Shown one piece after another: positions 1-60,693 of a stretch of DNA of 64,000 nt. The stretch's first letter is position 1; every line of letters begins with the position of its first letter. The notes beneath the pieces are model-generated. The model had not been told where the DNA came from. It saw only the letters and a list, made by a program, of their open reading frames with translations, and did not search any database. Origin of the DNA: Cyanobacteriota bacterium (GTDB lineage Bacteria; Acidobacteriota; Vicinamibacteria; Vicinamibacterales; UBA2999); the NCBI GenBank assembly GCA_019752015.1, contig JAIEMQ010000041.1:4469-68468 (forward strand). Direction: 5' to 3'. Made by a program: the position numbers and the translations under genes.

Positions 1-1272
1 GTTGTTCCGCTGAGAAATCAGCGGCCCCATTGAAGCGTAGCCCTTGGCCGTACGCGCCCACCCTGGTCGGAGTTGCCGTTGTTCCGCTGAGAAATCAGCG
101 GCCCCATTGAAGCGCCGGCCAAACGTGGGCGCTCGACGACAACGGCAAGTTGTTCCGCTGAGAAATCAGCGGCCCCATTGAAGCTCGTCTTCCCCGTTCT
201 CGTTGAGCATCTGAATGAGGATGTTGTTCCGCTGAGAAATCAGCGGCCCCATTGAAGCATGGAACAGCGATTCAAAATTTACTGCGTTCCAGTTGTTGTT
301 CCGCTGAGAAATCAGCGGCCCCATTGAAGCTGAAAAAATCCAATAGTCATCGCTGTTTGTCCCTTCGTTGTTCCGCTGAGAAATCAGCGGCCCCATTGAA
401 GCGATCGAGGATATGGATATACCACTGGTGACCGTGCCGTTGTTCCGCTGAGAAATCAGCGGCCCCATTGAAGCTGCCTGAACCCATGAACGGATCAAGC
501 ACCAGCTCACGTTGTTCCGCTGAGAAATCAGCGGCCCCATTGAAGCGAGCTGAGCGAGTGGCGAGCTGGTCAATCGACCAGCGTTGTTCCGCTGAGAAAT
601 CAGCGGCCCCATTGAAGCTGCTACAACCGCGGGAAAGCTGGAATTCAGGCCAGTTGTTCCGCTGAGAAATCAGCGGCCCCATTGAAGCTGAGGTGTGTTG
701 CAGTGGGGAGGTGGGAGCTAGTTGGTTGTTCCGCTGAGAAATCAGCGGCCCCATTGAAGCTCGAGCGTGGGCTTGTACTTCGCCCCTTTTTTCGGCGTTG
801 TTCCGCTGAGAAATCAGCGGCCCCATTGAAGCACTTCAACGGGAGCACCGCATTCACACAGACATCGAGTTGTTCCGCTGAGAAATCAGCGGCCCCATTG
901 AAGCCGTCGCCGACGCGCGTCGATCCGCCCTGCGTCTTGACGTTGTTCCGCTGAGAAATCAGCGGCCCCATTGAAGCGCGGGTGCAGGTGCCGAAGGTGC
1001 CGTACCACTCGTGTTGTTCCGCTGAGAAATCAGCGGCCCCATTGAAGCCCGTGTTTGCGCTGCTGGGATTTGACGGTTCCGACGACAGTTGTTCCGCTGA
1101 GAAATCAGCGGCCCCATTGAAGCCCCGCCGTCCAGCGCATGCCACCCGGCGAGTGGGTCTCCGTGTTGTTCCGCTGAGAAATCAGCGGCCCCATTGAAGC
1201 GACGCGACACGGAGCACGTCCCGACCCATCCAGGTCGTTGTTCCGCTGAGAAATCAGCGGCCCCATTGAAGC
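1..1272 (+). CRISPR. CRISPR array: 18 identical 36-bp direct repeats and 17 spacers (34-41 bp). It runs off the left edge of the window.
   Basis: The repeat GTTGTTCCGCTGAGAAATCAGCGGCCCCATTGAAGC starts at 1, 78, 149, 223, 295, 367, 439, 511, 583, 653, 725, 797, 869, 942, 1013, 1088, 1165 and 1237. It has an internal 7-bp stem CCGCTGA/TCAGCGG. The 3' end ATTGAAGC resembles the ATTGAAA(C/G) handle of Cas6-processed class 1 repeats, so + orientation is assigned tentatively. Confidence 0.97.
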
Positions 1273-3843: not shown

Positions 3844-3932
3844 GACAATCGGGCTACTGGCTGGGGCACGTTACGCCTGCAGCCAGACACTGTCAAGAAG
3901 AAGTCCCGTGCCCCCGATCGATGCAGCTCTCT

Positions 3933-3957
3933 CTAGATCTAGATCTAGATCTAGATC
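3933..3957. repeat. Perfect (CTAGAT)x4 hexamer microsatellite, fully self-complementary
   Basis: The sequence reads ctagatctagatctagatctagatc. It lies between the NHL gene stop (3971) and the kinase start (3843). Confidence 0.95.
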
Positions 3958-12629: not shown

Positions 12630-12662
12630 CACAGATTAGACACAGATTGGACGCAGAGGGTT
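12630..12662 (+). repeat. Tandem 11-mer array CACAGATTAGA / CACAGATTGGA / CGCAGAGGGTT filling the stop-to-start spacer
   Basis: Read directly. The upstream stop is at 12623-12625 and the next ORF starts at 12661. Confidence 0.85.
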
Positions 12663-25916: not shown

Positions 25917-25976
25917 ACTATCGCTCCGCGCCCGCGCAGTCTCCATAATCCAGTCGACTTTCTCCCATAACGATCA

Positions 25977-27392
25977 ATGGCACCACGCACGATCACTCCA
26001 CAGGAATCCGAGCACGCCGCGCAGTTGCTCGCCAGCGCCCGCACGGCGATGGCGGCCATTGCCGACTACGACCAGGCCAGGGTCGATCGCATCTGTCAGG
26101 CGATCGGCTGGGCGGCCGCCAATCCCGAATCCGCCGAACGCCTGGCCAACATGAGCGTCGACGAGAGCGGCATGGGCAGCCGCGAGCCGCGGCGCCGCGC
26201 CAAGGTGCTCGGCATTCTTCGCGATGCGCTTCGCCAGAACAGCATGGGCATCATCGAGGAAATCCCGGAGAAGGGCATCGTCAAGTACGCCAAGCCGGCC
26301 GGCGTGATCTGCTCGCTGATTCCCGTCACCAGTCCGTACATTACGCCGATCGGCATCGCGATCTACGCGATCAAGTGCAAGGACGCGGTGATCTTTTCGC
26401 CGCATCCCTCGAGCCGGAAGACCACGAACGAGACCGTCCGCTTGATGCGCGCGGCACTGAAGGAGCTCGGCGTTCCTGAGGATGTGCTGCAGTGCGTTGA
26501 GCAGCCGAGCATTCCGCTCGCCAACGAGCTGATGTCGATCTGCGACCTGACGATCGCCACCGGCGGTCCCGCGATGGTCAAGGCCGCCTACAGCTCCGGA
26601 AAGCCCGCCTACGGCGTCGGCGCCGGCAACGCGACGATGGTCATCGACGAGACCGCCGACGTCAAAGAGGCGGCGAAGAACACCGCGATCAGCAAGACGA
26701 ACGATCACGGTTCGGGATGTTCAGCCGACGGCAATCTCGTGGTCGACGCAAGGATCTACGACGCGCTGCTGCAGGAGCTGCAACACCAGGGCGGGTATCT
26801 CGTAAGCGCGCGGGAAAAACAGCAGCTCCAGAGCGCTTACTGGGATGAGCAGGGCAGGCGCACGGCCGATACCATCGCGCGTCCCGCCGCCGACATTGCC
26901 GCCAAGGCCGGCTTCTCGATTCCGTCCGGCAAGACCTTTTTCCTCGTCGAAGAGACCAACATCGGCAGGCAGCATCCATACTCGACCGAGAAGCTCGGCG
27001 TCGTACTCGCGGTTTTCAAGGTGAACGGATTCGACGATGCACTCGACAAGGTGCGGCAGATTTTCGAGACCGGCGGCCGCGGCCACTCGTGCGGCATCTA
27101 TTCGTTCAACGACGAGCACATCAACCGTCTCGCGTTGATGGCGCCGGTGAGCCGGATCATGGTCCGCCAGGTGCAATCGAGCTCCAATGCCGGCACGTTC
27201 ACCAACGGCATGCCGATGACGTCGAGCATGGGCTGCGGCATCTGGGGCGGCAACATTACCAACGAGAACGTCTCGCTCAAGCACTACATGAACGTGACGT
27301 GGGTGTCGCGGCCAATCGCGGAAGACAAGCCATCGGAAGCGGAATTATTCGGCGAGTTCTATAACAAGCCTGTTCCCGTCGGAAAGCACTGA
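25977..27392 (+). CDS. CoA-acylating aldehyde/semialdehyde dehydrogenase (SucD/EutE-like)
   Basis: 471 aa. The architecture and motifs resemble my recollection of Clostridium SucD-type enzymes: ATGGPAMVKAAYSSGKPAYGVGAGN, catalytic Cys context NDHGSGCSADGNLVV, GHSCGIYS and MGCGIWGGNITNENV. Confidence 0.75.
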   Translation: MAPRTITPQESEHAAQLLASARTAMAAIADYDQARVDRICQAIGWAAANPESAERLANMSVDESGMGSREPRRRAKVLGILRDALRQNSMGIIEEIPEKGIVKYAKPAGVICSLIPVTSPYITPIGIAIYAIKCKDAVIFSPHPSSRKTTNETVRLMRAALKELGVPEDVLQCVEQPSIPLANELMSICDLTIATGGPAMVKAAYSSGKPAYGVGAGNATMVIDETADVKEAAKNTAISKTNDHGSGCSADGNLVVDARIYDALLQELQHQGGYLVSAREKQQLQSAYWDEQGRRTADTIARPAADIAAKAGFSIPSGKTFFLVEETNIGRQHPYSTEKLGVVLAVFKVNGFDDALDKVRQIFETGGRGHSCGIYSFNDEHINRLALMAPVSRIMVRQVQSSSNAGTFTNGMPMTSSMGCGIWGGNITNENVSLKHYMNVTWVSRPIAEDKPSEAELFGEFYNKPVPVGKH

Positions 27393-27395
27393 TTC

Positions 27396-29171
27396 ATGAA
27401 TCCTCCTATTGCGACCCAAACAGCGGTCAAGCGGGCTGCGTCAGGCGCGAAGACGCGCATCGCGTCGTATCTGCTCACCGACTACCTGGAACGCCTTGGC
27501 GTCGAAGTGGTGTTCGGGCTGTGCGGCCACACGGTGATCGCGTTCCTCGACGCGCTCAGCAGGAGCAAGATTCGGTTCATCAGCACGCGTCACGAGCAGG
27601 TCGCCGCGCACGCCGCCGACGGCTACGCGCGCGCGTCCGGGAAAGTCGGCGTGTTGATGACGCACCTGGGCCCGGGCCTGACCAACGCCGCGACCGGCGT
27701 CGCGAATGCGGCGCTCGACTCGATCCCGATGGTCGTGATCGCCGGCGACATTCCCAGCTACTACTACGGCCGTCATCCGCACCAGGAAGTGAACCTGCAC
27801 CAGGACGCGGATCAATTCCAGATCTACCGGCCGTTCTGCAAGCGCGTCTATCGCGTCGACAACGTCCGCGATCTGCCGCGCATTGTCGAGCGCGCGTTCC
27901 ATCTTGCGCAATCCGGACGTCCCGGCCCGGTGCTCGTCGACGTGCCGATGGACATCTTCTCCGCGGATCTCGAGGTCGACGCCTTTGCGACGACACCGCC
28001 CGAGATCGCGAAGCCGGGACTCGATCCGGCGACGGCGGCGCGCATTGTCGACGCGCTGGCCACGTCGCGGCGGCCCGTGCTCTACGCCGGCGGCGGTGTG
28101 TTATCGGCGCGGGCGACGAAGGAATTGCAGGCGCTGGCCGAAGCGCTGCAAGTACCGGTCGCACATACCTTGATGGGCAAAGGCTGCCTGCCGCACGAGC
28201 ATCCACTCCTCCTCGGTCAATCGGGTTTCTGGGGTACCCCGATCGCCAACGAGAAGTGCCGCACCGCCGATCTGATCGTCGCGATCGGCACCAGGCTCGC
28301 CGAAGCGAACTCGAGCTCGTGGGACCCGCGATTCACGTTTTCGATTCCGGCGACCCGTTTGATTCACATCGATGCGGACCTTTCGGAGATCGGCCGCAAC
28401 TACCAGACCGAATTGGGTGTGTGCGCCGACGCGAAGCTCGCGCTTGCGGCCCTCGCCGACGAAGCGCGCAGCAAGCGGCACGCCGATCGCGGCCGCCTGC
28501 ACGACGAGATCAAGCGCGGCCGGACCGAGTTCGCCAACAACTGGGCCGATCAATGGACCTCCGATCAGTTCCCGCTGCGGCCCGAGCGCATTCTCAGCGA
28601 GCTGCGCCGCGCTGCGCCCGCCGACGCGTTCATCGTCACCGACGTCGGCTGGAACAAGAACGGCGTCGGCCAGCAGTTCCCGATCGACGTGCCCGGCGCC
28701 TTCATCACACCGAGCGGTCTCGCGACGATGGGGTTCGGTCCGGCGGCGGCGCTCGGCGTCAAGGTTGCGCAGCCGACGCGCCACGCGATCGCGCTGATCG
28801 GCGACGGCGGCTTCAGCGCCAATCCCTCGGTGATTGCCACGGCGATGGAAGCCGGCCTCGACGTGATCTGGGTCGTGATGGACAACTCGGCGTTCGGCAC
28901 GATCGCCGGCCTCGAAGAAATGCACTACGGCACGACGTTCGGCTGCACGTTCGAATGCGACGGCAAGCCGTATCACGTGGACTACGCGGCGATGGCGCGG
29001 TCGTTCGGCGCCGACGGCTACCTGGTGAGCACGGCGGACGAGTTGCGGCCGGCGTTGGAGAAGGCGCTGGCATCTGGACGGCCCTCGCTGATCCAGGTGC
29101 CAATGGAAAACGCGCCGACACCGACGCCGGGGCATTGGGACATCAACGACATCTATCGGCGTGGTGAGTGA
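27396..29171 (+). CDS. Thiamine-diphosphate-dependent enzyme of the acetolactate-synthase-like family; substrate unknown
   Basis: 591 aa. N-terminal Pyr domain (HEQVAAHAADGYARASGKVGV, GPGLTNAATGVANA). C-terminal ThDP motif IGDGGFSANPSVIATAMEAGLDVIWVVMDNSAFG. Confidence 0.85.
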   Translation: MNPPIATQTAVKRAASGAKTRIASYLLTDYLERLGVEVVFGLCGHTVIAFLDALSRSKIRFISTRHEQVAAHAADGYARASGKVGVLMTHLGPGLTNAATGVANAALDSIPMVVIAGDIPSYYYGRHPHQEVNLHQDADQFQIYRPFCKRVYRVDNVRDLPRIVERAFHLAQSGRPGPVLVDVPMDIFSADLEVDAFATTPPEIAKPGLDPATAARIVDALATSRRPVLYAGGGVLSARATKELQALAEALQVPVAHTLMGKGCLPHEHPLLLGQSGFWGTPIANEKCRTADLIVAIGTRLAEANSSSWDPRFTFSIPATRLIHIDADLSEIGRNYQTELGVCADAKLALAALADEARSKRHADRGRLHDEIKRGRTEFANNWADQWTSDQFPLRPERILSELRRAAPADAFIVTDVGWNKNGVGQQFPIDVPGAFITPSGLATMGFGPAAALGVKVAQPTRHAIALIGDGGFSANPSVIATAMEAGLDVIWVVMDNSAFGTIAGLEEMHYGTTFGCTFECDGKPYHVDYAAMARSFGADGYLVSTADELRPALEKALASGRPSLIQVPMENAPTPTPGHWDINDIYRRGE

Positions 29172-32100
29172 GTGACGGCTTCAATGGAGGCAGCGGTGGT
29201 CAACCTGAAACATCTGTCAGCATTTCTCGGCGCGATTCTGCTGACTGCGTTCACGGCCGGCACGGCGTGGGCACAGTCGGTCTCGAGTGCTCAAGTATCG
29301 GGCGTGGTCCGTGATTCGAGTGGTGGCGCGTTGCCGGGCGCCGACGTGACGCTCACCAAGATCGACACGGGCGCGGTGCGCACGGTGATCGCCGGCAGCG
29401 ACGGCGCCTACGTTTTCCCCAACCTGCCCGTGGGTCCTTACCAGATGAAAGTCGCGCTCCAGGGCTTCAACACCTACGTCCAGGACGGCATCGTCCTGCA
29501 GGTCAGCTCGAACCCGCAGATCAACGTGACGCTGTCGGTGGGCACCGTCAGCGAGCAGGTGACGGTGACGGCGAACACGACGATGGTCGAGACGCATTCC
29601 ACCGGCATCGGCCAGGTCGTCGACAACCAGCGCGTCGTCGAGCTGCCGCTCAACGGCCGCCAGGCGACCGAACTGATCTTTCTCGCCGGTCTCGCGACGG
29701 CGGCGCCGGCCGGCGACCTCAACACCAACAAGAACTACCCGACGGTCACCATCTCGGTGGCGGGCGGCCAGGCCAACGGCATGACCTACATCATGGATGG
29801 CGGCACGCACAACGATCCGTTCAACAACCTCAATCTGCCGACGCCGTTCCCCGATGCGCTGCAGGAGTTCAAGGTGGAAACCAGCTCGCTGCCGGCTCGT
29901 TACGGTCAGCATGCGGCGTCAGCGGTCAACATCATCACGAAGTCCGGCACCAATGCGTTCAACGGCAGCGCGTTCGAATTCAACCGCGACTACCGGTTCA
30001 ACGCGCGCAACGCGTTCGCGGCCGCGCGCGACAGCCTGCGCCGCAATCAGTTCGGCGGCGTGGTGGGCGGCCCGATCAAGAAGAACAAGGCGTTCTTTTT
30101 CGGCGGTTATCAGGGAAAGATCGAAAAGACGAATCCGCCGACCAGCATCAGCTACATCCCGACGCGGGCGATGCTGGCTGGAGACTTCACCGCGATCACG
30201 TCTCCCGCGTGCAATGCGGGACGGCAGCTGAACCTGACCGGCGGTTTCGCCGGCAATCAGATCGACCCGTCGCGATTGAGCCCGATCGCGGTGAACTTCG
30301 CGAAGTACCTGCCGGTCGACACCGCCGATGCGTGCGGACGCGTCCAGTACGGGATTCCGCAGAACAACACCGAGCACCAGGGCCTGGCCAAGATCGACTA
30401 CACGCTCAACACCCGGCAGTCGATGTTCGCACGCTACCTCTACGCGGTCTACGACAATCCCGCCACCTACGACGGCGCGAATGTGCTGACGCTGAGCCGC
30501 ACCGGCCAGAACAACCAAGCACACTCGGTAGTCGTCGGCCACAACTTCGTGCTGTCGTCGTTCGTGAATGCCTTGCGGGTCACGTTCAACAAAACGCTCA
30601 ACGACCGTCCGCTGCCGGAATATTTCTCGGCCACCGATCTCGGCGCCAGGGTCTACAGCCCGCTCAAGGGCTATGTCGGCGTCAACGTCACCGGCAACGG
30701 CTTCTCGATCGGCAGCGGCGCGACCAATCCCGGCTATTTCAATTCGGTCGGCTGGCAGCTGGCCAACGACGTCGATTACGTGAAGGGCAATCATCAGATC
30801 TCGTTTGGCGGCAACTGGATTCGCACCAAGATTGAAACGCTGAACAACCGCCCGACCAATGGCGCGTTCAGCTTCAATGGCCAGGGCACCGGTCTGTCGC
30901 TGGCGGACTTCATGATGGGCATCGTGAGCGGCGGGTTCCTGCAGGGCAATCCGGTGTATGACTACGACGATCACGATTACGTCGGCGCGTACATTCAGGA
31001 CGATTGGCGCATCCGCCCCAATCTCAGTGTCAATGCCGGCGTGCGCTGGGAGCCGTGGATTCCGCTGCGCAACACCTACAGCTGGGTGAGCAACTTCGAC
31101 GAGGATCGCTTCCGCGCCGGCATCAAGAGCAAGATCTATCCGCAGGCGCCCGCCGGCCTGTATTTCCCCGGCGACGAGGGTTACCCCGGCCGCGCCGCGA
31201 GCCGGGGCAAGCTTGCGCAGTTTGCGCCGAGGCTCGGCGCGATCTGGACGCCGGGCGGCGACGGCAGCACCAGCATCCGCGCCGGCTGGGGCATGTTCTA
31301 CGACACGCCGCATCTGTTCTTCAACACGCGTTTCGCCAACAATCCGCCGTGGGGCGCGCAGATCACGATCCCGAATCCGGCCGGTGGCTGGGCCGATCCG
31401 TACTCGACCTATCCGGGCGGCAATCCGTTCCCGGCGCTGAACACCGGCTGGGCGACGCAGCCGTTCCCGGCGTTTGGCGTGTATGTCAACGCGCCGCTCA
31501 ATCTGCAGCCGACGACGCTGCATCAGTGGAACATCAGCGCGCAGCGGATGTTCGGTGACTGGATGCTGGCGGCTACATATCTCGGCAACAAGTCCGTGAA
31601 TCTGTGGCGCGCCACCGAGTTGAACCCCGCGGTGTTCGGCCCGGGTGCCACCACGGGCAACACCAACGCGCGCCGTCGTTTGAATGCGATTAACCCGGTC
31701 GAGGGTCAGTTCTACGGCACCATCGGCCAGGTCGACGACACCGGCCGCGGCACGTATCACGGCATGTTGCTGTCGGCGCAGCGCCGCTTGAAGAACAACT
31801 TGAGCGTGCTCACCAACTGGACGCTCTCGAAGTGCATGTCGGATCCGGCGACCACGGAAATCACCGGCCCGACCATCGTCGATCCGAACAATCCGGATCT
31901 CGATTACTCGTATTGCTCGTCGGATCGCCGCCACGTCGTCAACGTATCGGTGGTGACGCGCACGCCGGAATTCCAGAACCAGGTGTTGAACACGCTGTTC
32001 GGCAGCTGGCAGTTCTCGCCGCTGGTGCGGTGGCAGAGCGGCAACCGCTCGTCGGTCACGACCGGTGTCGACAACGCCCTGACCGGCATGGGCGGCCAGC

Positions 32101-32435
32101 GCGCGGTGCAGATCCTCGACAATCCATACGGCGACGGCACCCCGGGCTTCTATCTCAATCGCGCAGCCTTTACGGCGCCGGCGTCCGGCACCTACAGCAC
32201 GCTGAAGCCGTTCACGATCGTGAATCCGTCGCGCTTGCAGAATGACCTCGCGATTACCCGCATGTTCAGGCTGGCGAGCGGCCAGAACCTGCAGTTCCGC
32301 TGGGAAATCTTCAACGTCATGAACAAGGTCAATTACAACGCGCCGGTGACCGCGCTCAACAGCGCGAGCTTCGGCATCATTCAAAGCGCCGGCGATCCGC
32401 GTATCATGCAGTTTGCCTTGAAGGTGGACTTCTGA
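29172..32435 (+). CDS. TonB-dependent-receptor-like outer-membrane protein with an N-terminal carboxypeptidase-regulatory-like domain (paralogue type of 6039..8978)
   Basis: 1087 aa. Signal peptide ending AWAQS. VSGVVRDSSGGALPGADVTLTKIDTG. Plug-like TVTANTTMVETHSTGIGQVVDNQRVVELP. The C-terminus ends ...FALKVDF. The start is GTG 29172 or ATG 29184. Confidence 0.85.
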   Translation: MTASMEAAVVNLKHLSAFLGAILLTAFTAGTAWAQSVSSAQVSGVVRDSSGGALPGADVTLTKIDTGAVRTVIAGSDGAYVFPNLPVGPYQMKVALQGFNTYVQDGIVLQVSSNPQINVTLSVGTVSEQVTVTANTTMVETHSTGIGQVVDNQRVVELPLNGRQATELIFLAGLATAAPAGDLNTNKNYPTVTISVAGGQANGMTYIMDGGTHNDPFNNLNLPTPFPDALQEFKVETSSLPARYGQHAASAVNIITKSGTNAFNGSAFEFNRDYRFNARNAFAAARDSLRRNQFGGVVGGPIKKNKAFFFGGYQGKIEKTNPPTSISYIPTRAMLAGDFTAITSPACNAGRQLNLTGGFAGNQIDPSRLSPIAVNFAKYLPVDTADACGRVQYGIPQNNTEHQGLAKIDYTLNTRQSMFARYLYAVYDNPATYDGANVLTLSRTGQNNQAHSVVVGHNFVLSSFVNALRVTFNKTLNDRPLPEYFSATDLGARVYSPLKGYVGVNVTGNGFSIGSGATNPGYFNSVGWQLANDVDYVKGNHQISFGGNWIRTKIETLNNRPTNGAFSFNGQGTGLSLADFMMGIVSGGFLQGNPVYDYDDHDYVGAYIQDDWRIRPNLSVNAGVRWEPWIPLRNTYSWVSNFDEDRFRAGIKSKIYPQAPAGLYFPGDEGYPGRAASRGKLAQFAPRLGAIWTPGGDGSTSIRAGWGMFYDTPHLFFNTRFANNPPWGAQITIPNPAGGWADPYSTYPGGNPFPALNTGWATQPFPAFGVYVNAPLNLQPTTLHQWNISAQRMFGDWMLAATYLGNKSVNLWRATELNPAVFGPGATTGNTNARRRLNAINPVEGQFYGTIGQVDDTGRGTYHGMLLSAQRRLKNNLSVLTNWTLSKCMSDPATTEITGPTIVDPNNPDLDYSYCSSDRRHVVNVSVVTRTPEFQNQVLNTLFGSWQFSPLVRWQSGNRSSVTTGVDNALTGMGGQRAVQILDNPYGDGTPGFYLNRAAFTAPASGTYSTLKPFTIVNPSRLQNDLAITRMFRLASGQNLQFRWEIFNVMNKVNYNAPVTALNSASFGIIQSAGDPRIMQFALKVDF

Positions 32436-32440
32436 TTCGC

Positions 32441-34318
32441 ATGAGAGTTCGTGCACGATTCCTGCTCGTCACGGCTGCGGCATTGTCCGCAGCCGTCGTC
32501 AGCGCGCAACAGCCTTCGACTGCGCTCAGGCCAGGGAACTGGGAGCACGTCGGGCAGGATCCGGGCGGAACGAAGTACTCGACGCTCGATCAGATCAACA
32601 CCGGCAACGTGAAGTCGCTGCAGAAGGCGTGGACCTTCCATACCGGCGACAAGACCGGCTTCTTCGAGAGCACGCCGCTGGTGATCGACGGCACGATGTA
32701 CCTCACCGCGCAGAACGGAATCTACGCGATCGATCCGTTGACCGGCACGCAGCTGTGGAAGTTCGAGTCCGACGGCGGCACGCGTCGCGGTCTCACGTAC
32801 TGGCCCGGTGATGCGGCGACGCCCGCGCGCATCTTCGGATCGGCGCAGGAGCGGTTGATCGCGCTCGACGCAAAGACCGGCCGCATGATTCCACAATTCG
32901 GGCAGGGCGGCTTCGTCGATATGGGCACGACGATGGCATCGCCGGCGGCGCTCTATAAGGACATCCTGATCACCCCGGCCACATCGCCGATCATCCGCGC
33001 CTATAACGCCCGCACTGGCGCCGAGATCTGGAAGTTCGATCTGGTCGCGCAGCCCGGCGATCCGAATAACAAGACCTGGGAAGGCGAGTCGTGGAAGGCG
33101 GTCGGCGGCACCAACACCTGGGGCTACCTCACGATCGACACCGAGCGCGGCATCGTCTACATCCCGACCTCGATCGCCGGCGAAAACGATTACGTCGGCG
33201 TGACCCGGCCGGGCGACAACCTGTACGGCACGTCGCTTGTTGCGGTTGATATCGCCACCGGCAAGAAGCTGTGGCACCAGCAGCTCGTGCATCACGACAT
33301 CTGGGACAACGATCTCGGCGCGCATCCGACGTTGATCGACGTCACGCGCAACGGCAAAACGATCCCGGCAGTGGCGCAGATCACGAAGATGGGCCTGCTC
33401 TTCATCTTCAATCGCGTCACCGGCGAACCGATCTTCGGAGTTGAGGAACGCGCGGTGCCGCAGAGCACGGTGCCTGGCGAGAAGACGGCGGCGACACAGC
33501 CGTTCCCGGTCAAGCCGCCACCACTGGCGCGCAACTCGATCACGCGATCGGAGCTGCCGACGAACATCTCGCCTGAGCACACCGCGTATTGCCAGGGGTT
33601 ATGGGAGAAATACGGCCTGCAGGATTCCGTCCCGTATACGCCGTGGCATGTGATGAAGGACGTGGTCGTCTTCCCGGGCGCGATCGGCGGCGGCAACTGG
33701 GGCGGCGTGGCCTACAACAAGAAGCTGGACCTCGTGATCACGAACGTGATGAACGCGGGGCAGTGGGGCCATCTCGAAAAGAGCGAAGGCGCTCCCGTTG
33801 GCGGTGACCAGCCGAACGCAGCGGCCGGACGCGGCGGGCGCGGAGGTTTCGGAGGCGGCGGCGGGCCGCCGCGCAGCCGCGAGCCGTATCGCAAGGTGAC
33901 GCCGGAAGGCGGGCGCTTCTGGGATCAGAAGACGCAGTACTCGTGCGCGCCGACGCCGTGGGGCGAACTGATCGCCGTCAACGCAAACACCGGCGATATC
34001 GCGTGGCGCTCGACGCTCGGCAGCTTCGACGAGCTCGAAGCGAAAGGCATCAAGGCCGGCCGTCCCAGCCTCGGTGGTGCGATCACTACCGCCGGCGATC
34101 TGGTGTTCATTGCGGCGACCACGGACGGCTACTTCCGCGCCTTCGATGCGCGCAACGGCGCCGAATTGTGGAAGACGAAGCTGACGGTGCCGGGACATTC
34201 GATCCCATCGACATACATGGGGAAGGACGGCAAGCAGTACATCGCGATCACCGTGGGCGGCGGCGGATTCCTGCGCAGCCCGCAGAGTGATGAAGTCGTG
34301 GCCTTCCGCCTTCCGTAA
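32441..34318 (+). CDS. PQQ-dependent dehydrogenase (quinoprotein glucose/alcohol dehydrogenase family), secreted
   Basis: 625 aa. Signal peptide. Propeller W-motifs (LQKAWTFHTGD, TPLVIDGTMYLTAQNGIYAIDPLTGTQLWKF, GDLVFIAATTDGYFRAFDARNGAELWK). Confidence 0.85.
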   Translation: MRVRARFLLVTAAALSAAVVSAQQPSTALRPGNWEHVGQDPGGTKYSTLDQINTGNVKSLQKAWTFHTGDKTGFFESTPLVIDGTMYLTAQNGIYAIDPLTGTQLWKFESDGGTRRGLTYWPGDAATPARIFGSAQERLIALDAKTGRMIPQFGQGGFVDMGTTMASPAALYKDILITPATSPIIRAYNARTGAEIWKFDLVAQPGDPNNKTWEGESWKAVGGTNTWGYLTIDTERGIVYIPTSIAGENDYVGVTRPGDNLYGTSLVAVDIATGKKLWHQQLVHHDIWDNDLGAHPTLIDVTRNGKTIPAVAQITKMGLLFIFNRVTGEPIFGVEERAVPQSTVPGEKTAATQPFPVKPPPLARNSITRSELPTNISPEHTAYCQGLWEKYGLQDSVPYTPWHVMKDVVVFPGAIGGGNWGGVAYNKKLDLVITNVMNAGQWGHLEKSEGAPVGGDQPNAAAGRGGRGGFGGGGGPPRSREPYRKVTPEGGRFWDQKTQYSCAPTPWGELIAVNANTGDIAWRSTLGSFDELEAKGIKAGRPSLGGAITTAGDLVFIAATTDGYFRAFDARNGAELWKTKLTVPGHSIPSTYMGKDGKQYIAITVGGGGFLRSPQSDEVVAFRLP

Positions 34319-34320
34319 AT

Positions 34321-34355
34321 CAGGGATCAGGGATCAGGGATCAGGGGTCAGGGGT
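34321..34355 (+). repeat. Tandem heptamer array (CAGGGAT)x3 (CAGGGGT)x2 occupying the entire stop-to-start spacer
   Basis: Read directly. Upstream TAA at 34316-18 and downstream ATG at 34360. Confidence 0.95.
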
Positions 34356-34359
34356 CACG

Positions 34360-35172
34360 ATGAACAAGCGCCTCCTCGTTCTGGTCACGCTGCTGCTTGG
34401 CGTGATGTTTCTGCCGCTTGAAGCGCAGCGTGGGGGCGGACAGCGCCCACCGCGCACGCGCAAAGTGGTACTCGCGTGGGCTGACACGCGCAACGGCATC
34501 GCGCAGCACGAATCCACGTCACATGCGGTGTCCGTGATCGAGCGGCTGGGATACGAATCCGGTGTCTACGACACGTTCATTCGCACCGATTCGAACATCA
34601 TCTCGAAACAACCCAAGCGGACGACTGGCGAGCCGGCGAGCGGCGGGCCGAATCTCGCGATGGCCGACGCGATCTTCTTCATGGGACATCGCGACGTGCC
34701 GATCGACGAGGAACAGAAGAAGGAGCTGTTGTCGTTCGTCCGCGATGACGGCAAGGGCATTGTCGCCGCACACACGGCGCTGACCGCGTTTGAATCGTGG
34801 CCGGAATTCGGCGAGCTGCTTGGCGCGCGGTATGACGGACATCCATGGCATCAAGTCGGGACCGTCATCAACGAAGCGCCGGATTCACCGATCACGAAGC
34901 ACTTCCCGCCGACGTTCCAGATCAACGACGAGTTCTACCAGGCGAAGAACGTCTCGCCCGGCATGCGCGTGCTGCTGCGTCTGGATGTGTCGAAGATGCC
35001 GCCGCACGCGGAGCTGCGGAACCAGTCGTTTCCGCTCGTGTGGGTCAAGCAGTACGGCAAGGGCCGCGTCATGTTCTCGTCGTTCGGGCACGATGCGTCG
35101 ATCTACGACAATCGTGACGTCGCCCAGATGTTTCTCGAGGGCATGAAATGGGTGTTGCACCTCAGCGAATAG
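34360..35172 (+). CDS. ThuA-domain protein, secreted
   Basis: 270 aa. Signal peptide. VLAWADTRNGIAQHES..., FVRDDGKGIVAAHTA, DEFYQ and FSSFGHD match the ThuA pattern. Confidence 0.8.
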   Translation: MNKRLLVLVTLLLGVMFLPLEAQRGGGQRPPRTRKVVLAWADTRNGIAQHESTSHAVSVIERLGYESGVYDTFIRTDSNIISKQPKRTTGEPASGGPNLAMADAIFFMGHRDVPIDEEQKKELLSFVRDDGKGIVAAHTALTAFESWPEFGELLGARYDGHPWHQVGTVINEAPDSPITKHFPPTFQINDEFYQAKNVSPGMRVLLRLDVSKMPPHAELRNQSFPLVWVKQYGKGRVMFSSFGHDASIYDNRDVAQMFLEGMKWVLHLSE

Positions 35173-36002
35173 CGGCCGGCGTCGCGATCGCCGCGCTGTC
35201 ATTGACGGTTCTCGGGGCCCATTTCCAGGCGCCGAGAACTTTTCGCAAGCACGTCCTCGCCTGGGCCGACGTCCGCAACGGCTATCAGCATGAATCGATC
35301 ACGCATGCGCTGAGCACCATCGAACGTATGGGATGGGAGTCCGGTCTCTACGACACCATCATCCGCACCGATTCACAGTCGATCACCAAGTCCCCGATCC
35401 TGTTCAAGCACGGCACCGGCATCGCGGCCAACGAACAGTTCCTGGCGCGCAATCTCAATTACTTCGACGCGATCTTTTTCTTCGGCGTGCGCGAGATCGA
35501 TCTCGATCCGCAACAGCGCGCCGACCTGCTGTCCTTCGTCCGGGACGACGGCAAGGGCTTCGTGGCCACCCATGCGGGCTCGACCGCGTTTTTCTCGTGG
35601 CCCGAATTCGGCGGGATGCTCGGTGGCCGGTTCGACGAGCACCCCTGGGGCATCACCGAGGCCACGGTCATCGTCGAAGATCGCAGCTCGCCGATCTCGC
35701 GGCACTTGCCGGCCTCGTTCCCGGTAATCGATGAGCACTATCAGCTGAAGGAGTTCTCGAGAGACAAGGTTCATGTCCTGGCGCGTCTCGATGCCGCGAA
35801 GCTGGATCTAAAGGCGCCGCTGGTCCATCGCACCGATCGGGATTTCGTGGCGGCGTACACGAAGACCTACGGCAAGGGACGGGTCTTCTACTCGACGCTG
35901 GGCCACCCGCGCGAGCTGTGGGATCAGGAATGGCTGCGGAAAATGTACTTCGAGGCGTTGAAGTGGTCGATGGAGGCTAGCCCAGCCCGACCCGCGCAGT
36001 GA
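35148..36002 (+). CDS. ThuA-domain protein (paralogue of 34360..35172)
   Basis: 284 aa. Motifs parallel the upstream gene (VLAWADVRNGYQHES, FVRDDGKGFVATHAG, DEHYQ, YSTLGHP). Overlaps the upstream gene by 25 nt. Confidence 0.8.
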   Translation: MGVAPQRIAAGVAIAALSLTVLGAHFQAPRTFRKHVLAWADVRNGYQHESITHALSTIERMGWESGLYDTIIRTDSQSITKSPILFKHGTGIAANEQFLARNLNYFDAIFFFGVREIDLDPQQRADLLSFVRDDGKGFVATHAGSTAFFSWPEFGGMLGGRFDEHPWGITEATVIVEDRSSPISRHLPASFPVIDEHYQLKEFSRDKVHVLARLDAAKLDLKAPLVHRTDRDFVAAYTKTYGKGRVFYSTLGHPRELWDQEWLRKMYFEALKWSMEASPARPAQ

Positions 36003-42668: not shown

Positions 42669-46453
<3,785 letters not shown>

Positions 46454-46454
<1 letters not shown>

Positions 46455-47464
46455 TAGTGGTCTCGTCGGCTCGCCGCAGGCGAGCCGTCTCGCCGTAGCT
46501 CGCCTGATTTCTTGCGAGCGGAGGCGGATGTTCTTTTAGTGCCGATGGCAAGAAGAACGGCAAAGGGATCGTTGGTGCGCCGGGCTCCGAGCGTGACCCG
46601 CACATCCGTAAACCCGGCGCGGGTCAGCAGGCCGGAGAGATGTTCATCGGAAAATCCAAACCAGCGGTCGCCAAGCTTTTCGCGCACCCACGTCTCGTCG
46701 TGCGGGCGCAGATCGAGAATCAGCAGCCGGCCGCCGGGCTTGAGGATCCGCAACGCCTCGTCGAGCGCTTTCGGCGGCTCGGACGCGTGATGCAGGGCCT
46801 GCGACAACAGCGCCACATCCATCGTGTTGGTGTCGATCGGCAGTTTCTCGAGCTCGCCCTTCTTCCACGTGATGTTCGACAGTTTCTTGCGCTCGGCCAG
46901 CGCCTTCGCGCGCGTCAACACGCCGGCCGATCGATCCACCGCGGTGACCTGCTTCGCCCACCGCGCGGTTTCCACCGTGAGATAACCCTCGCCGCAACCG
47001 AGATCCGCGACCTCGAGCGGGGGCAACAGCATTCCAAGCGCGCGCGACCACGCCGCCCAACTGCGGCCCGGCACCAGCTGCCGGCCGTCGCGCGTGTCGG
47101 GGCCGACATGCTCGAAGTTCTCGCGCCGCAAGCGGAGAACTTCCTGCAATCGCGATTCATCCGCCTTGACGATGGCCGATCCCGCCGCCGCGTCGAACTG
47201 GGACTGGAGCAACGGCCACAATGGGCTCGAGCCGTCCGCCTTCACGGCCGGGGCAAGTCGATAAAAGCTGTAGGCGCCGTCGCGTTCTTCCACGACCAGC
47301 TCGGACTCCTTGAGCAGGCCGAGATGGCGGGACACGCCCGACTGCGCCAGGCCGAGGATGCCGGTCAGCTCCTTGACGTTGAACCGGTCCTTGTCCAGCA
47401 CGCGCAGCAGCCGTAACCGGGCCTCGTCCCCCAGCAGGCGATAGAGCGCGGACGCCTCTTTCAC
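46454..47464 (-). CDS. ArsR-family HTH fused to a SAM-methyltransferase-like domain (SahR-like regulator of methionine/SAM-cycle genes)
   Basis: 336 aa. The N-terminal [47 protein letters not shown] is an ArsR w[15 protein letters not shown] and [12 protein letters not shown] are class I MTase motifs. The gene lies directly upstream of metH, overlapping its start by 1 nt, which matches the SahR architecture described in Proteobacteria. Confidence 0.75.
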
Positions 47465-51770: not shown

Positions 51771-51965
51771 GGTCCGGCTAAAGCCGGACCCTCACAAGAA
51801 TCATGTGAGGGTCCGCCTTTTGGGCGAACCGACTTCCCAATAATCATGTGAGGGTCCGCCTTTAGGCGAAACGACTTCTCAATAATCATGTGAGGGTCCG
51901 CCTTTAGGCGAACCGACTTCTCAATAATCATGTGAGGGTCCGCCTTTAGGCGGACCAATCTGTGT
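51771..51965. repeat. REP-like hairpin in inverted orientation, followed by about four tandem 42-43-bp units each carrying TGTGAGGGTCCGCC
   Basis: GGTCCGGCTAAAGCCGGACCCTCACA is at 51771-51796. TGTGAGG starts at 51804, 51847, 51889 and 51931. Only the last unit keeps an intact stem (GGTCCGCC-TTTA-GGCGGACC). Confidence 0.9.
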
Positions 51966-51979
51966 AGAATCATCCCGCT

Positions 51980-54199: not shown

Positions 54200-54201
54200 A
54201 T

Positions 54202-54241
54202 CTGTTGACCTATTGATCTATTGATCTATTGATCTGTTGAT
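54202..54241 (+). repeat. Tandem octamer array CTGTTGAC (CTATTGAT)x3 CTGTTGAT occupying the entire stop-to-start spacer
   Basis: Read directly. Upstream TGA at 54197-99 and downstream ATG at 54243. Confidence 0.95.
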
Positions 54242-54242
54242 C

Positions 54243-59309: not shown

Positions 59310-59507
59310 GTGGCGATGGCAACCCAGGTTCCGGCGATCAAGGTCTTGCTGCTGCCGAAAGACAACGCGCTCGGCACCATCTTCGGCGGCGCCATCCCCT
59401 CGCACATCGACCTGGCGTCGGCGGTCGAAGCGCGCAAGGTGACGGAGGCGGAAGTGGTGCTCGTCGCCGTCGGGCCTGACGAAGCGCCGGTACCAATTCG
59501 TCCTTAG
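59310..59507 (+). pseudogene. Possible 5' fragment of a hotdog-fold acyl-CoA thioesterase (YciA-like)
   Basis: 65-aa ORF. LLLPKDNALGTIFGGAIPSHIDLASAVEARK resembles the N-terminal half of YciA-type thioesterases (P.D.N..G.iFGG.i....D.A). The frame ends in a TAG that is also the first bases of the tandem octamer array. Confidence 0.4.
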
Positions 59508-59537
59508 GCACCCAGGCACCGAGGCACCCAGGCACCT
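59506..59537 (+). repeat. Tandem octamer array (AGGCACCN)x4 ending 2 nt before the thrB ATG
   Basis: AGGCACCC, AGGCACCG, AGGCACCC, AGGCACCT, read directly. ATG at 59540. Confidence 0.95.
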
Positions 59538-59539
59538 GA

Positions 59540-60475
59540 ATGATTGCAGTCTTCGCTCCCGGATCGGTTTCTAACGTCGCGTGCGGCTTCGACATCATGG
59601 GGTTTGCACTCGAAGAACCCGGCGATGTGGTGGTTGCGGCGCCTCAGGACGATCCCGGTGTGTCGATTGCCGCGATCCACGGCGACGACGGCCGGTTGAC
59701 GACGGATCCGCTGAAGAACACCGCGTCGGCGGCGGTGCTCGCGCTGCTCGAGCGGCTCGAGACGACTCGCGGGGTCGCGTTGACGATTCACAAGGGCCTG
59801 CCGCTCGCGAGCGGCATCGGCAGCAGCGGCGCCAGCGCCGTCGCCGCGGTGGTGGCCGCCAACGAGCTGCTCGGCCGGCCGGCGCCGATGTCCATGCTGC
59901 TCGAGTGCGCGATGGCTGGAGAGTTTGCGGGCTGCGGCTCCGTCCATCCCGACAACGTCACGCCGTCGTTACATGGCGGCTTCATCCTCGCCCGCAGCGC
60001 GCAGCCGCCCGACATTGTCCGCCTGCCCGTGCCCGAAGGCCTGGCGTGCGCGGTTTTGCACCCGAAGATGGAAGTGGAGACCGGCGCCGCGCGGACGCTG
60101 CTCGGCAATCAGGTGGCGCTGAAGGATGCGACCAGGCAGTGGGCCAACGTCGGCGGCCTCGTCGCGGCGCTCTACACCTCTGATCTCGGGCTGCTGTCGC
60201 GATCGCTGGTCGACTCGATCGCGGAACCGAAGCGCGCCTCGCTCGTGCCCGGATTCTTCGACGTGAAGTCCGCCGCGATCGCCGCCGGCGCACTCGGCGC
60301 GAGCTTGTCCGGCTCCGGTCCGTCGATCTTCGCGCTCGCGCCATCACTCGAGATCGCCCGCGCCGCGGGTGACGCAATGCGAACCGCCTTCGCGCGCGCG
60401 AGCAACGTCGGCGCCGATCTCTGGGTGTGCCCTGTAGGTCGCAGCGGCGCGCGTGTCATAAGCAGCCACAGATGA
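59540..60475 (+). CDS. thrB: Homoserine kinase
   Basis: 311 aa. GHMP kinase motif GLPLASGIGSSGASAVAAVVA. N-terminal APGSVSNVACGFD. Adjacent to thrC. Confidence 0.9.
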   Translation: MIAVFAPGSVSNVACGFDIMGFALEEPGDVVVAAPQDDPGVSIAAIHGDDGRLTTDPLKNTASAAVLALLERLETTRGVALTIHKGLPLASGIGSSGASAVAAVVAANELLGRPAPMSMLLECAMAGEFAGCGSVHPDNVTPSLHGGFILARSAQPPDIVRLPVPEGLACAVLHPKMEVETGAARTLLGNQVALKDATRQWANVGGLVAALYTSDLGLLSRSLVDSIAEPKRASLVPGFFDVKSAAIAAGALGASLSGSGPSIFALAPSLEIARAAGDAMRTAFARASNVGADLWVCPVGRSGARVISSHR

Positions 60476-60693
60476 CACAGATTTCACAGATTAGAGCTCG
60501 CCCCGCGGCGCCGGTCGAAGACCGGCGCGCGCGTCGAACCGCCGACGATCGAAAATCAAGAGAGCATTCGTGACCCGGCGGGCTCTCTTGATTTCGATCG
60601 TCGGCGGTTCGACCGGCGGCCTTCGGCCGCCCGCGGGGCGAGCGCATTTGGTGAGCGCGCCGTCTTTAATCTGTGTAATCTGTGTAATCTGTG
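60467..60693. repeat. 227-bp foldback element between thrB and thrC, with terminal inverted arrays of three 9-mers (CACAGATGA, CACAGATTT, CACAGATTA ... TAATCTGTG x3)
   Basis: Inner arms pair as follows. GAGCTCGCCCCGCGG (60494-508) pairs with CCGCGGGGCGAGC (60631-43). TCGAACCGCCGACGATCGAAAATCAAGAGAGC (60535-65) pairs with GGCTCTCTTGATTTCGATCGTCGGCGGTTCGA (60581-612). Each arm also carries a local hairpin (60509-28 and 60612-30). The thrB stop codon lies inside the first 9-mer. Confidence 0.9.

Follow-up and report, generated by a model that had tools for sequence, protein, structure and literature searches.

A heptamer microsatellite, probably derived from a Shine-Dalgarno sequence, fills the spacer between the PQQ dehydrogenase and ThuA genes of an Acidobacteriota operon

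The window, by which we mean the whole stretch of 64,000 nucleotides that was analysed, carries a tightly packed six-gene operon in which a tandem array of heptamers is the sole sizeable spacer. The genes of the operon and the features of this spacer are the following.

25971-27392, + strand, aldehyde dehydrogenase-like gene (Pfam, ORF coordinates)
27393-29171, + strand, TPP enzyme gene (Pfam, ORF coordinates)
29172-32435, + strand, CarboxypepD_reg/OMP beta-barrel gene (Pfam, ORF coordinates)
32441-34318, + strand, PQQ-dependent dehydrogenase gene (PQQ-DH; PF01011, E=8e-169), stop codon TAA at 34316-34318
34319-34357, + strand, heptamer microsatellite that occupies the spacer, a (TCAGGGA)3 (TCAGGGG)2 TCA (TRF)
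34323-34347, + strand (mRNA sense), canonical G-quadruplex motif (G3N4)3G4, comprising the first four G-tracts and leaving the fifth unit free (regular expression and ViennaRNA)
34350-34354, + strand, ATG-proximal AGGGG core, putative operative Shine-Dalgarno (SD) sequence of thuA1, 5 nt (TCACG) from the ATG
34360-35172, + strand, thuA1, encoding a ThuA-domain protein (PF06283, E=2e-35), start position conserved in orthologues
35148-36002, + strand, thuA2, coding for a second ThuA paralogue; its first 25 nt overlap thuA1

The upstream junctions of the operon, from the aldehyde dehydrogenase-like gene to the PQQ-DH gene, measure 0-5 nt each, and the gene order recurs in two relatives (L046/L047). 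The PQQ-DH gene ends with the codons CTT CCG TAA (34316-18), and the C-terminus ...VAFRLP* is conserved among orthologues, while the N-terminus of ThuA1 is a signal peptide (MNKRLLVLVTLLLGVMFLPLEAQ...). Between the two genes, both of which lie on the + strand, the junction reads TAA(34316-18)-AT-(CAGGGAT)3(CAGGGGT)2-CACG-ATG(34360), a stop-start gap of 41 bases. The initial annotation had described this spacer as five heptamers plus 4 nt. The array is indeed as described, but the bases 34319-20 had been overlooked; the period continues there, and the array starts 1 nt past the TAA of the PQQ-DH gene. TRF run on the window assigned to 34319-34357 a period of 7, 5.6 copies and 96% matches.

Such an array lies far beyond chance expectation. 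The longest self-match run at a lag of 7 was 21, whereas 200 Markov-1 simulations of the window gave 8.6 on average and never more than 12, and the window holds seven perfect short-period runs (5-9 nt, at least 3 copies) where 0.25 were expected (maximum 2). No Rfam family matched the window at the gathering score, and none matched 34200-34480 at E<=1. An evolved RNA hairpin was rejected for the spacer, as it is less structured than its shuffles (z=+1.9; 198 of 200 shuffles reached an equal or better fold). Between 33800 and 34800, neither a sigma-70-like promoter nor a terminator was found.

The relatives that were recovered via the ThuA protein are Acidobacteriota MAGs and metagenome contigs, several of them labelled Vicinamibacterales. 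The window's own sequence is present in drinking-water metagenomes, and the locus was found in no RNA run. We found no database protein more than 88% identical to the ThuA1 of the window, nor any recorded gene with a product exactly equal to it.

To place the array among orthologous junctions, the spacer was read from the PQQ-DH stop to the ThuA1 start in about 38 distinct Vicinamibacterales-like Acidobacteriota lineages. In 21 of these the junction is without an array and the spacer is only 7-14 nt long; in nearly all of them the stop codon overlaps an SD of the TA(G/A)GGAG or TGAGGAT type, for example TAGGAG or TAAGGAG. Examples of these array-less spacers are:

L015, TAGGAGATCGACATG
L002, TAGGAGACTGCGATG
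L014, TAAGGAGCTGATGGCATG
L052, TGAGGATCTCATG
L045 (P0002, the protein closest to that of the window, 84% identity), TAGGAGATCGCCATG
L023, TAAGGGATCGACATG, effectively one AGGGATC unit

Fourteen lineages, including that of the window (WIN), carry tandem SD-bearing heptamers in 2-8 copies at this junction, and the arrays begin 0-3 nt past the stop codon. The units are variants of one another (TCAGGGA, CTAGGGA, TTAGGGA and TCAGGAA), and their numbers are listed below; for those relatives that come from Nanopore MAGs, indel errors may affect details of the units, such as TCGGGA in L008.

WIN, L001, L019: 5 units
L004: 5 units, unit CTAGGGA
L008: 7 units
L017, L020: 3 units
L018, L044: 4 units
L025: 7 units, unit TTAGGGA, which includes the stop triplet TAG
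L026: 5 units, the first still TCGGAGA
L043: 8 units, in a 64-nt spacer
L046/L047: decayed 2 units, TCAGGGA TCATGGA
P0016 species: 2-4 units, unit TCAGGAA

Many arrays have a 3' flank, GGGATCAGACATG, that differs from the array-less GGGATCGACATG by a single base, and the simplest reading of this similarity is that the heptamer carrying the SD was amplified in tandem in situ. The spacer of a further orthologue, P0056, has a length of 118 nt.

In a tree of ThuA1, array-bearing lineages are interspersed with array-less ones. The nearest relative is array-less for the window (95% of bootstraps), L001 (100%), L004 (100%) and L025 (85%), and L001 and its array-less relative L003 share 94% identity. 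On the other hand, L017, L018 and L020 form a clade with arrays in all members; in this clade and its relatives the unit counts are 3, 3, 4, 4, 7 and 8. At least four or five events, in which an array was gained or lost, are needed to account for the array-less nearest relatives together with the all-array clade.

Unit number also differs among near-identical strains. Five P0016 contigs from different samples encode an identical 277-aa ThuA, and their spacers measure 22, 29, 29, 29 and 36 nt. The fifth contig has a spacer of 29 nt; the four contigs that could be read (L048-L051) hold 2, 3, 3 and 4 units, namely (TCAGGAA)2; (TCAGGAA)3; TCAGGAA-TCAGGAT-TCAGGAA; and TCAGGAA-TCAGGAA-TCAGAAA-TCAGGAA. 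These counts are resolvable because the repeat runs are shorter than the 31-mers of the assembler. The upstream 80 nt are identical in all four and thuA differs at 0-5 of 834 positions; L048 and L050 even have identical thuA genes, yet carry 2 and 3 units, respectively. As a control, 9, 3 and 5 sequenced contigs of three array-less species were compared, and within each species the spacer did not vary. We conclude that the array is a truly hypermutable simple sequence repeat (SSR), the polymorphism having been seen in a related species; for the window's own species, the drinking-water contigs have a coverage of 3-5x and end more than 100 nt before the array. The copy-number polymorphism that had been predicted from the window is therefore found at both levels, as 2-8 units between lineages and as 2/3/3/4 units among near-identical strains of one related species. 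Such unit-number polymorphism among near-identical strains, here in P0016, is a hallmark of contingency loci.

Arrays are specific to this junction within the operon. The ThuA1-ThuA2 junction has no array in about 30 lineages, where the genes overlap or are separated by 6-17 nt, and the OMP-PQQ-DH junction has none in 14 lineages, with spacers mostly of 5-6 nt. What distinguishes the PQQ-DH-ThuA1 junction is that the SD is located within the spacer itself. Moreover, no AGGGATC-type array was found elsewhere in 291 kb from about 40 genomes of the clade; the genome of the window is covered to 64 kb. Other repeats are nevertheless present in the window:

54200-54242, (ATCTRTTG)5.4, the whole penicillin-amidase-DUF3224 spacer
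59506-59536, (AGGCACCS)3.9, adjoining the thrB ATG
one at 60467, 9-mer CACAGATTA-type arrays, which flank the thrB-thrC spacer and fill the AIM24-DUF5655 spacer
(TCTAGA)4.3, between two minus-strand genes

Each repeat-filled spacer of the window has its own unit, and no SD character was found in the others, including those at 54200, 59506 and 60467, which means that an SD is not required for such arrays to exist. Three other G3N4 arrays in the window have the differing units GGGAGCC and GGGAACC. The window also contains a convergent inverted array pair at 43323-43396. Of the 22 non-triplet arrays found across 309 kb of unique sequence, 18 lie outside coding regions. With the focal arrays removed, the density of short tandem repeats was 1.2 per 10 kb at array-bearing loci versus 0.7 at other loci, a small difference. 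The focal array is one case of a clade-wide tendency toward SSRs of 7-9 nt in short spacers, its unit sequence reflecting whatever stood there for amplification, and the window may be subject to a broader process that generates or uses repeats.

The initial annotation had pointed out an SD-like core in every unit, and homology bears this out, as most of the 21 array-less lineages hold a stop-overlapping SD at this place, such as TAGGAG, TAAGGAG or TGAGGAT. All lineages with an array have an SD-like core at a distance of 5-10 nt from the ATG; in L025, L026 and L008 the last unit abuts the ATG and the penultimate unit lies at 7-8 nt. Duplex energies were calculated against the generic core anti-SD (CCUCC), which may differ from the 16S of the host; the GAUC tail of 16S was left out because the palindromic GAUC of the repeat pairs with it. 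They amounted to -6.5 kcal/mol for CAGGGGUC, -4.7 for CAGGGAUC, -7.3 for the orthologues' UAGGAGAU and -4.5 for UAGGGAC. A single AGGGA (-4.7 kcal/mol) is thus weaker than the ancestral GGAG (-7.3), and amplification may have weakened initiation. Units with GGGG, whose pairing is stronger, make up 11 of the 61 units in 12 arrays and lie toward the ATG (mean relative position 0.76), with a permutation P of 0.0002 that is only indicative, as the lineages are phylogenetically non-independent. This clustering at the ATG end suggests selection on the proximal units as a working SD. In addition, thuA2 has an SD-like GAGGG at about -10, inside thuA1, and the SD-like motif of the PQQ-DH gene is likewise ordinary, which indicates that SD-led initiation is in use in the operon.

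Taken together, and as judged from sequence comparison, we consider it likely that the array is an SD-derived hypermutable microsatellite, driven by slippage, that constitutes the whole ribosome-binding region of thuA1. The ancestral junction was probably a stop-overlapping SD followed by about 9 nt and the ATG, as in TAGGAGATCGACATG. Replication slippage would have amplified a 7-nt piece of this short, translationally coupled junction, which carried the SD of thuA1, and the ATG-proximal unit (AGGGG, 34350-54) would now act as the operative SD. Slippage cannot destroy the geometry of initiation, because an SD is present in each unit and the period of 7 nt is itself a favourable distance between SD and ATG, and this would explain why an array could expand inside an operon junction. 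The extra units would stretch the stop-start distance from about 10 to 41 nt and might offer 30S subunits additional places to dock on a purine-rich stretch that lacks structure. With more units, translation of thuA1/thuA2 may shift from termination-reinitiation coupling toward independent loading. Unit number would then adjust expression by degrees instead of switching it on or off, and its effect is perhaps small. The earlier proposal that changes in unit number alter both spacing and the number of SD-like sites holds for the stop-start distance and for site number, but the SD-ATG spacing stays constant, and the proximal and partial units remain. We found no means of switching through the reading frame or through promoter or SD spacing, because the array lies outside ORFs, the SD-ATG distance is constant and a promoter is absent.

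The locus offers a natural series, from a single SD through 2 to 8 SD-bearing units to decayed remnants, together with polymorphism at the strain level. This series suggests one route by which G-rich heptamer arrays can originate, in which the heptamer that binds the ribosome at a coupled junction is amplified. The series of 0-8 units is also a simple system for studying the effects of tandem SDs, or of an upstream RNA G-quadruplex, on translational coupling.

Neutrality of the extra units is a serious alternative. On this reading the array would be a by-product of slippage in which only the proximal unit, as SD, matters, ThuA expression and fitness do not depend measurably on the number of copies, and the recurrence at this junction reflects the mutational propensity of G-rich heptamers and not selection. 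This would fit with the 2, 3 or 4 units among near-identical strains, the array-less closest relatives of array-bearers, the decayed remnant in L046 (TCAGGGA TCATGGA) and a copy number that ranges over 2-8 with no preferred value, and the published heptamer class is likewise without an assigned function (PMC4692102). However, arrays occur at this junction in 14 of about 38 lineages and at neither of two neighbouring junctions of the same operons, the arrays of most lineages remain pure instead of decaying, and the ATG-proximal GGGG bias speaks for selection on at least part of the array. We therefore regard a fully neutral array as possible but on balance doubtful. If unit number indeed has no effect, the array would serve as a hypervariable strain marker for uncultured Vicinamibacterales.

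A stronger version of the SD reading holds that the array is a selected and evolvable 'translation rheostat', a hypermutable multi-SD platform that is G-quadruplex-capable at four or more G3 units. We judge this version unlikely. In that case the number of units would fix how much PQQ dehydrogenase is made relative to the two ThuA proteins, the SD of thuA1 would have been amplified repeatedly and independently in Vicinamibacterales, and a contingency-like locus would exist in a bacterium that is free-living and not a pathogen. At the level of the clade, repeat-filled spacers, several of them devoid of an SD, could be a general, unrecognised means of building and tuning translation-initiation regions, and a function would be given to a bacterial heptamer SSR class that is so far unexplained.

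The array might also fold into a G-quadruplex (G4), either in the RNA or in the non-template DNA, which would mask the SD, or in which the first four tracts would form a bulky barrier upstream of the ribosome-binding site that enhances initiation, with the fifth as SD. ViennaRNA predicts -14.1 kcal/mol with a G4 and -10.8 without for the spacer with 10 nt on either side. All four putative G4 sequences of the window are heptamer arrays, where 1.4 would be expected, and of the 12 arrays whose units carry a G3 tract, 10 have at least four such tracts. GGGAATC and GGGGAYT repeats form G4s in vitro, with four units favoured (PMC4692102), and an RNA G4 in the 5'UTR upstream of the ribosome-binding site increased translation by as much as 12-fold, both in vitro and in E. 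coli (PMC11087576). On the other hand, L017 and L020 have only 3 G-tracts, the unit TCAGGAA of the polymorphic P0016 species contains only GG and makes a three-tier G4 impossible, 21 lineages have no array at all, and copy number does not cluster at 4. RNA G4s are reportedly depleted in bacteria in general and poorly tolerated, which also counts against this reading. We consider a G4 rather improbable, a minority rival weaker than the SD reading, with which it could coexist.

Binding of CsrA/RsmA, suggested by the initial annotation, would mean that the five A(N)GGA sites in tandem titrate the regulator away or let it repress thuA1 cooperatively. The array does contain multiple GGA motifs, in five AGGGA/AGGGG cores, and the GGA core is kept in all unit variants, including TCAGGAA. 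The consensus obtained for CsrA by SELEX is said to be RUACARGGAUGU, and CAGGGAU matches its core CARGGAU. However, the GGA cores lie outside hairpin loops, as the units have no self-complementarity, SD homology accounts fully for the motif, and the sites, which are missing from 21 orthologous lineages and whose number differs between near-identical strains, do not resemble a conserved regulatory target. Some Acidobacteria have csrA together with fliW (PMC4682653); tblastn for CsrA against 291 kb of clade DNA, a sample too small to be informative, gave no significant match (best E=0.19), the window's own genome being covered to 64 kb. CsrA has also been proposed as a candidate binder of TAACTGA heptamer repeats (PMC4679880). 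Overall, we find this explanation very improbable. Barely credible, finally, is a DNA-level element made of direct-repeat transcription-factor sites or a phase-variable internal promoter for thuA1-thuA2: tandem direct repeats can serve as operator sites, and in Haemophilus influenzae, where heptanucleotide SSRs occur, seven-bp repeats between promoter and start codon reportedly modulate expression of hmw1A/hmw2A, but the region lacks a recognisable sigma-70-like promoter or terminator, the junction lies within a tightly packed six-gene operon, a 7-bp period would place successive sites on different helix faces, and the 9-nt spacer of array-less relatives leaves no room for a promoter.

The SD-derived microsatellite that we favour can be set against several kinds of known repeats. 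Heptanucleotide repeats rich in G occur in large numbers in several bacterial phyla and, as far as Rehm et al. 2015 and the summarised account of Mrazek 2007 go, have no established origin or function. The literature on tandem or multiple Shine-Dalgarno sequences yielded nothing relevant in our search. With contingency loci, such as the Moraxella uspA2 5'UTR, whose AGAT repeats are cited in PMC4679880 as a phase-variable SSR, the array shares hypermutability before a start codon, strain-variable unit numbers and a possible quantitative effect on expression. It differs in belonging to a metabolic operon of a free-living soil/water bacterium and in that frame, promoter spacing and SD-ATG spacing are unchanged by unit number, so that on/off switching is not expected.

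Heptamers of the sequence TAACTGA were described upstream of start codons in Beggiatoaceae, cyanobacteria and Bacteroidetes by MacGregor 2015 (PMC4679880), who suggested a translational role and proposed S1, Csp and CsrA as binders. Both kinds are direct repeats of heptamers (2-6 copies in TAACTGA) within a few nt of the start codon. However, TAACTGA, one unit dispersed at 169 sites, is almost without SD character and replaces the SD, whereas the unit TCAGGGA is itself the likely SD and is apparently locus-specific. The ATCTRTTG (54200) and CACAGATTA (60467) arrays of the window are closer to the TAACTGA situation.

According to the summaries given in PMC4679880 and PMC4692102, Mrazek, Guo & Shah 2007 found long SSRs with units of 5-11 nt to be abundant in some free-living bacteria, with heptamers as the commonest unit of long SSRs, and proposed polymerase slippage as their cause. 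As summarised there, these SSRs resemble the present array in their heptanucleotide unit and in lying mostly outside coding sequence if the period is not divisible by 3. They differ in that the summarised results are genome statistics with no locus-level series, and Acidobacteriota/Vicinamibacterales are not among the genomes highlighted in these accounts.

The closest known class was described by Rehm et al. 2015 (PMC4692102), whose arrays of GGGAATC (Xanthomonas) and GGGGA(C/T)T (Nostoc) have 2-26 units and form G4s in vitro. About 90% of them are intergenic, mostly between aligned ORFs; they are transcribed, and no function was found. They vary between related species at the same site, some occur as convergent inverted pairs, and they are not tied to surface or virulence genes (PMC4692102). 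The present array is alike in its G3-4N3-4 heptamer unit with at least 2 tandem units, in its co-directional intergenic position within 50 bp of the upstream stop with the G-rich strand as the coding strand, and in a unit number and sequence that vary at the same site between related genomes; a convergent inverted pair is likewise present in the window, at 43323-43396. In contrast to the one unit at about 185 loci per genome of Rehm et al., the GGGATCA-type array was found only at this junction in 291 kb. Moreover, its unit abuts the start codon and can be traced to the SD of the downstream gene, an origin that Rehm et al. did not propose, a sister species uses the unit TCAGGAA, which is not capable of forming a G4, and the phylum, Acidobacteriota, is a different one. 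The array thus belongs to the G3N4 heptamer repeat kind and extends the G-rich class to Acidobacteriota; what is new is that it is apparently locus-specific and traceable to an SD.

Two in-frame insertions were found in the open reading frame of MetH (cobalamin-dependent methionine synthase), both of which are built of G3N4 heptamer arrays (a three-G tract plus 4 nt).

Window 42669-46535, minus strand: MetH open reading frame.
Window 45430-45460, in the MetH frame: (CGGGAGC)×4.4, coding for about 11 residues between the Hcy and pterin domains.
Window 43323-43396, in the MetH frame: convergent inverted pair (CCGGGAG)n...(CCGGTTC)n, an insert of about 25 aa in the activation domain.

Repeats of other types were observed at thrB and thrC.

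Window 59506-59536: (AGGCACCS)×3.9, ending 3 nt before the ATG of thrB (homoserine kinase).
Window 60467-60693: palindromic element of about 230 nt that makes up the thrB-thrC spacer.

The region of the thrB array otherwise lacks a Shine-Dalgarno (SD) motif near the start. The spacer element, which ends 8 nt from the thrC ATG, is bordered by (CACAGATKW)×3 on one side and by the reverse complement, (TAATCTGTG)×3, on the other. Arrays of CACAGATTA(AA/GA), which resemble these borders, are also present elsewhere in the window, likewise in spacers, and several related genomes have them too (L010, L038 and L022 are related loci compared with the window).

Window 12630-12657: CACAGATTA-type array.
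L010 3061-3099: CACAGATTA-type array.
L038 1435-1473: CACAGATTA-type array.
L022 1795-1822: CACAGATTA-type array, within the PQQ-DH-ThuA spacer.

These arrays and the thrB-thrC element could represent a conserved protein-binding element or a REP/MITE-like element.

Two related loci harbour other long non-triplet arrays.

L004 5826-5968: (GCCTGTTC)×17.9.
L005 5657-5681: (CGACCGT)×3.6, inside a long PQQ-DH-ThuA spacer.

In the orthologue encoding the ThuA protein P0056, the PQQ-DH-ThuA1 spacer measures 118 nt in both of two JGI contigs; either a far longer array, of some 15 units, or an insertion of another kind may account for this length.

The window contains further repeats.

Window 222-1272: CRISPR-like array, roughly 14 repeats of about 36-37 nt (CGTTGTTCCGCTGAGAAATCAGCGGCCCCATTGAAGC), period about 72.
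Window 3932-3957, minus strand: (TCTAGA)×4.3, a palindromic hexamer array in a spacer of about 100 nt.
Window 51790-51973: 42-nt unit ×3.8, directly upstream of the penicillin-amidase gene.
Window 54200-54242: (ATCTRTTG)×5.4, the whole spacer from the penicillin-amidase TGA to the ATG of a DUF3224 gene.

None of the Rfam CRISPR-DR families matched the CRISPR-like array at gathering score. The spacer with the hexamer array separates an NHL-repeat gene from a histidine-kinase gene, both on the minus strand, and every copy of the 42-nt unit contains an internal hairpin (GGGTCCGCCTTTAGGCGAACC).

The (ATCTRTTG)×5.4 spacer has no SD-like motif and in this recalls the TAACTGA repeats of Beggiatoaceae (MacGregor 2015, PMC4679880). 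The array pair in the MetH activation domain has the inverted-pair layout described for the GGGAATC repeats of Xanthomonas (Rehm 2015, PMC4692102).
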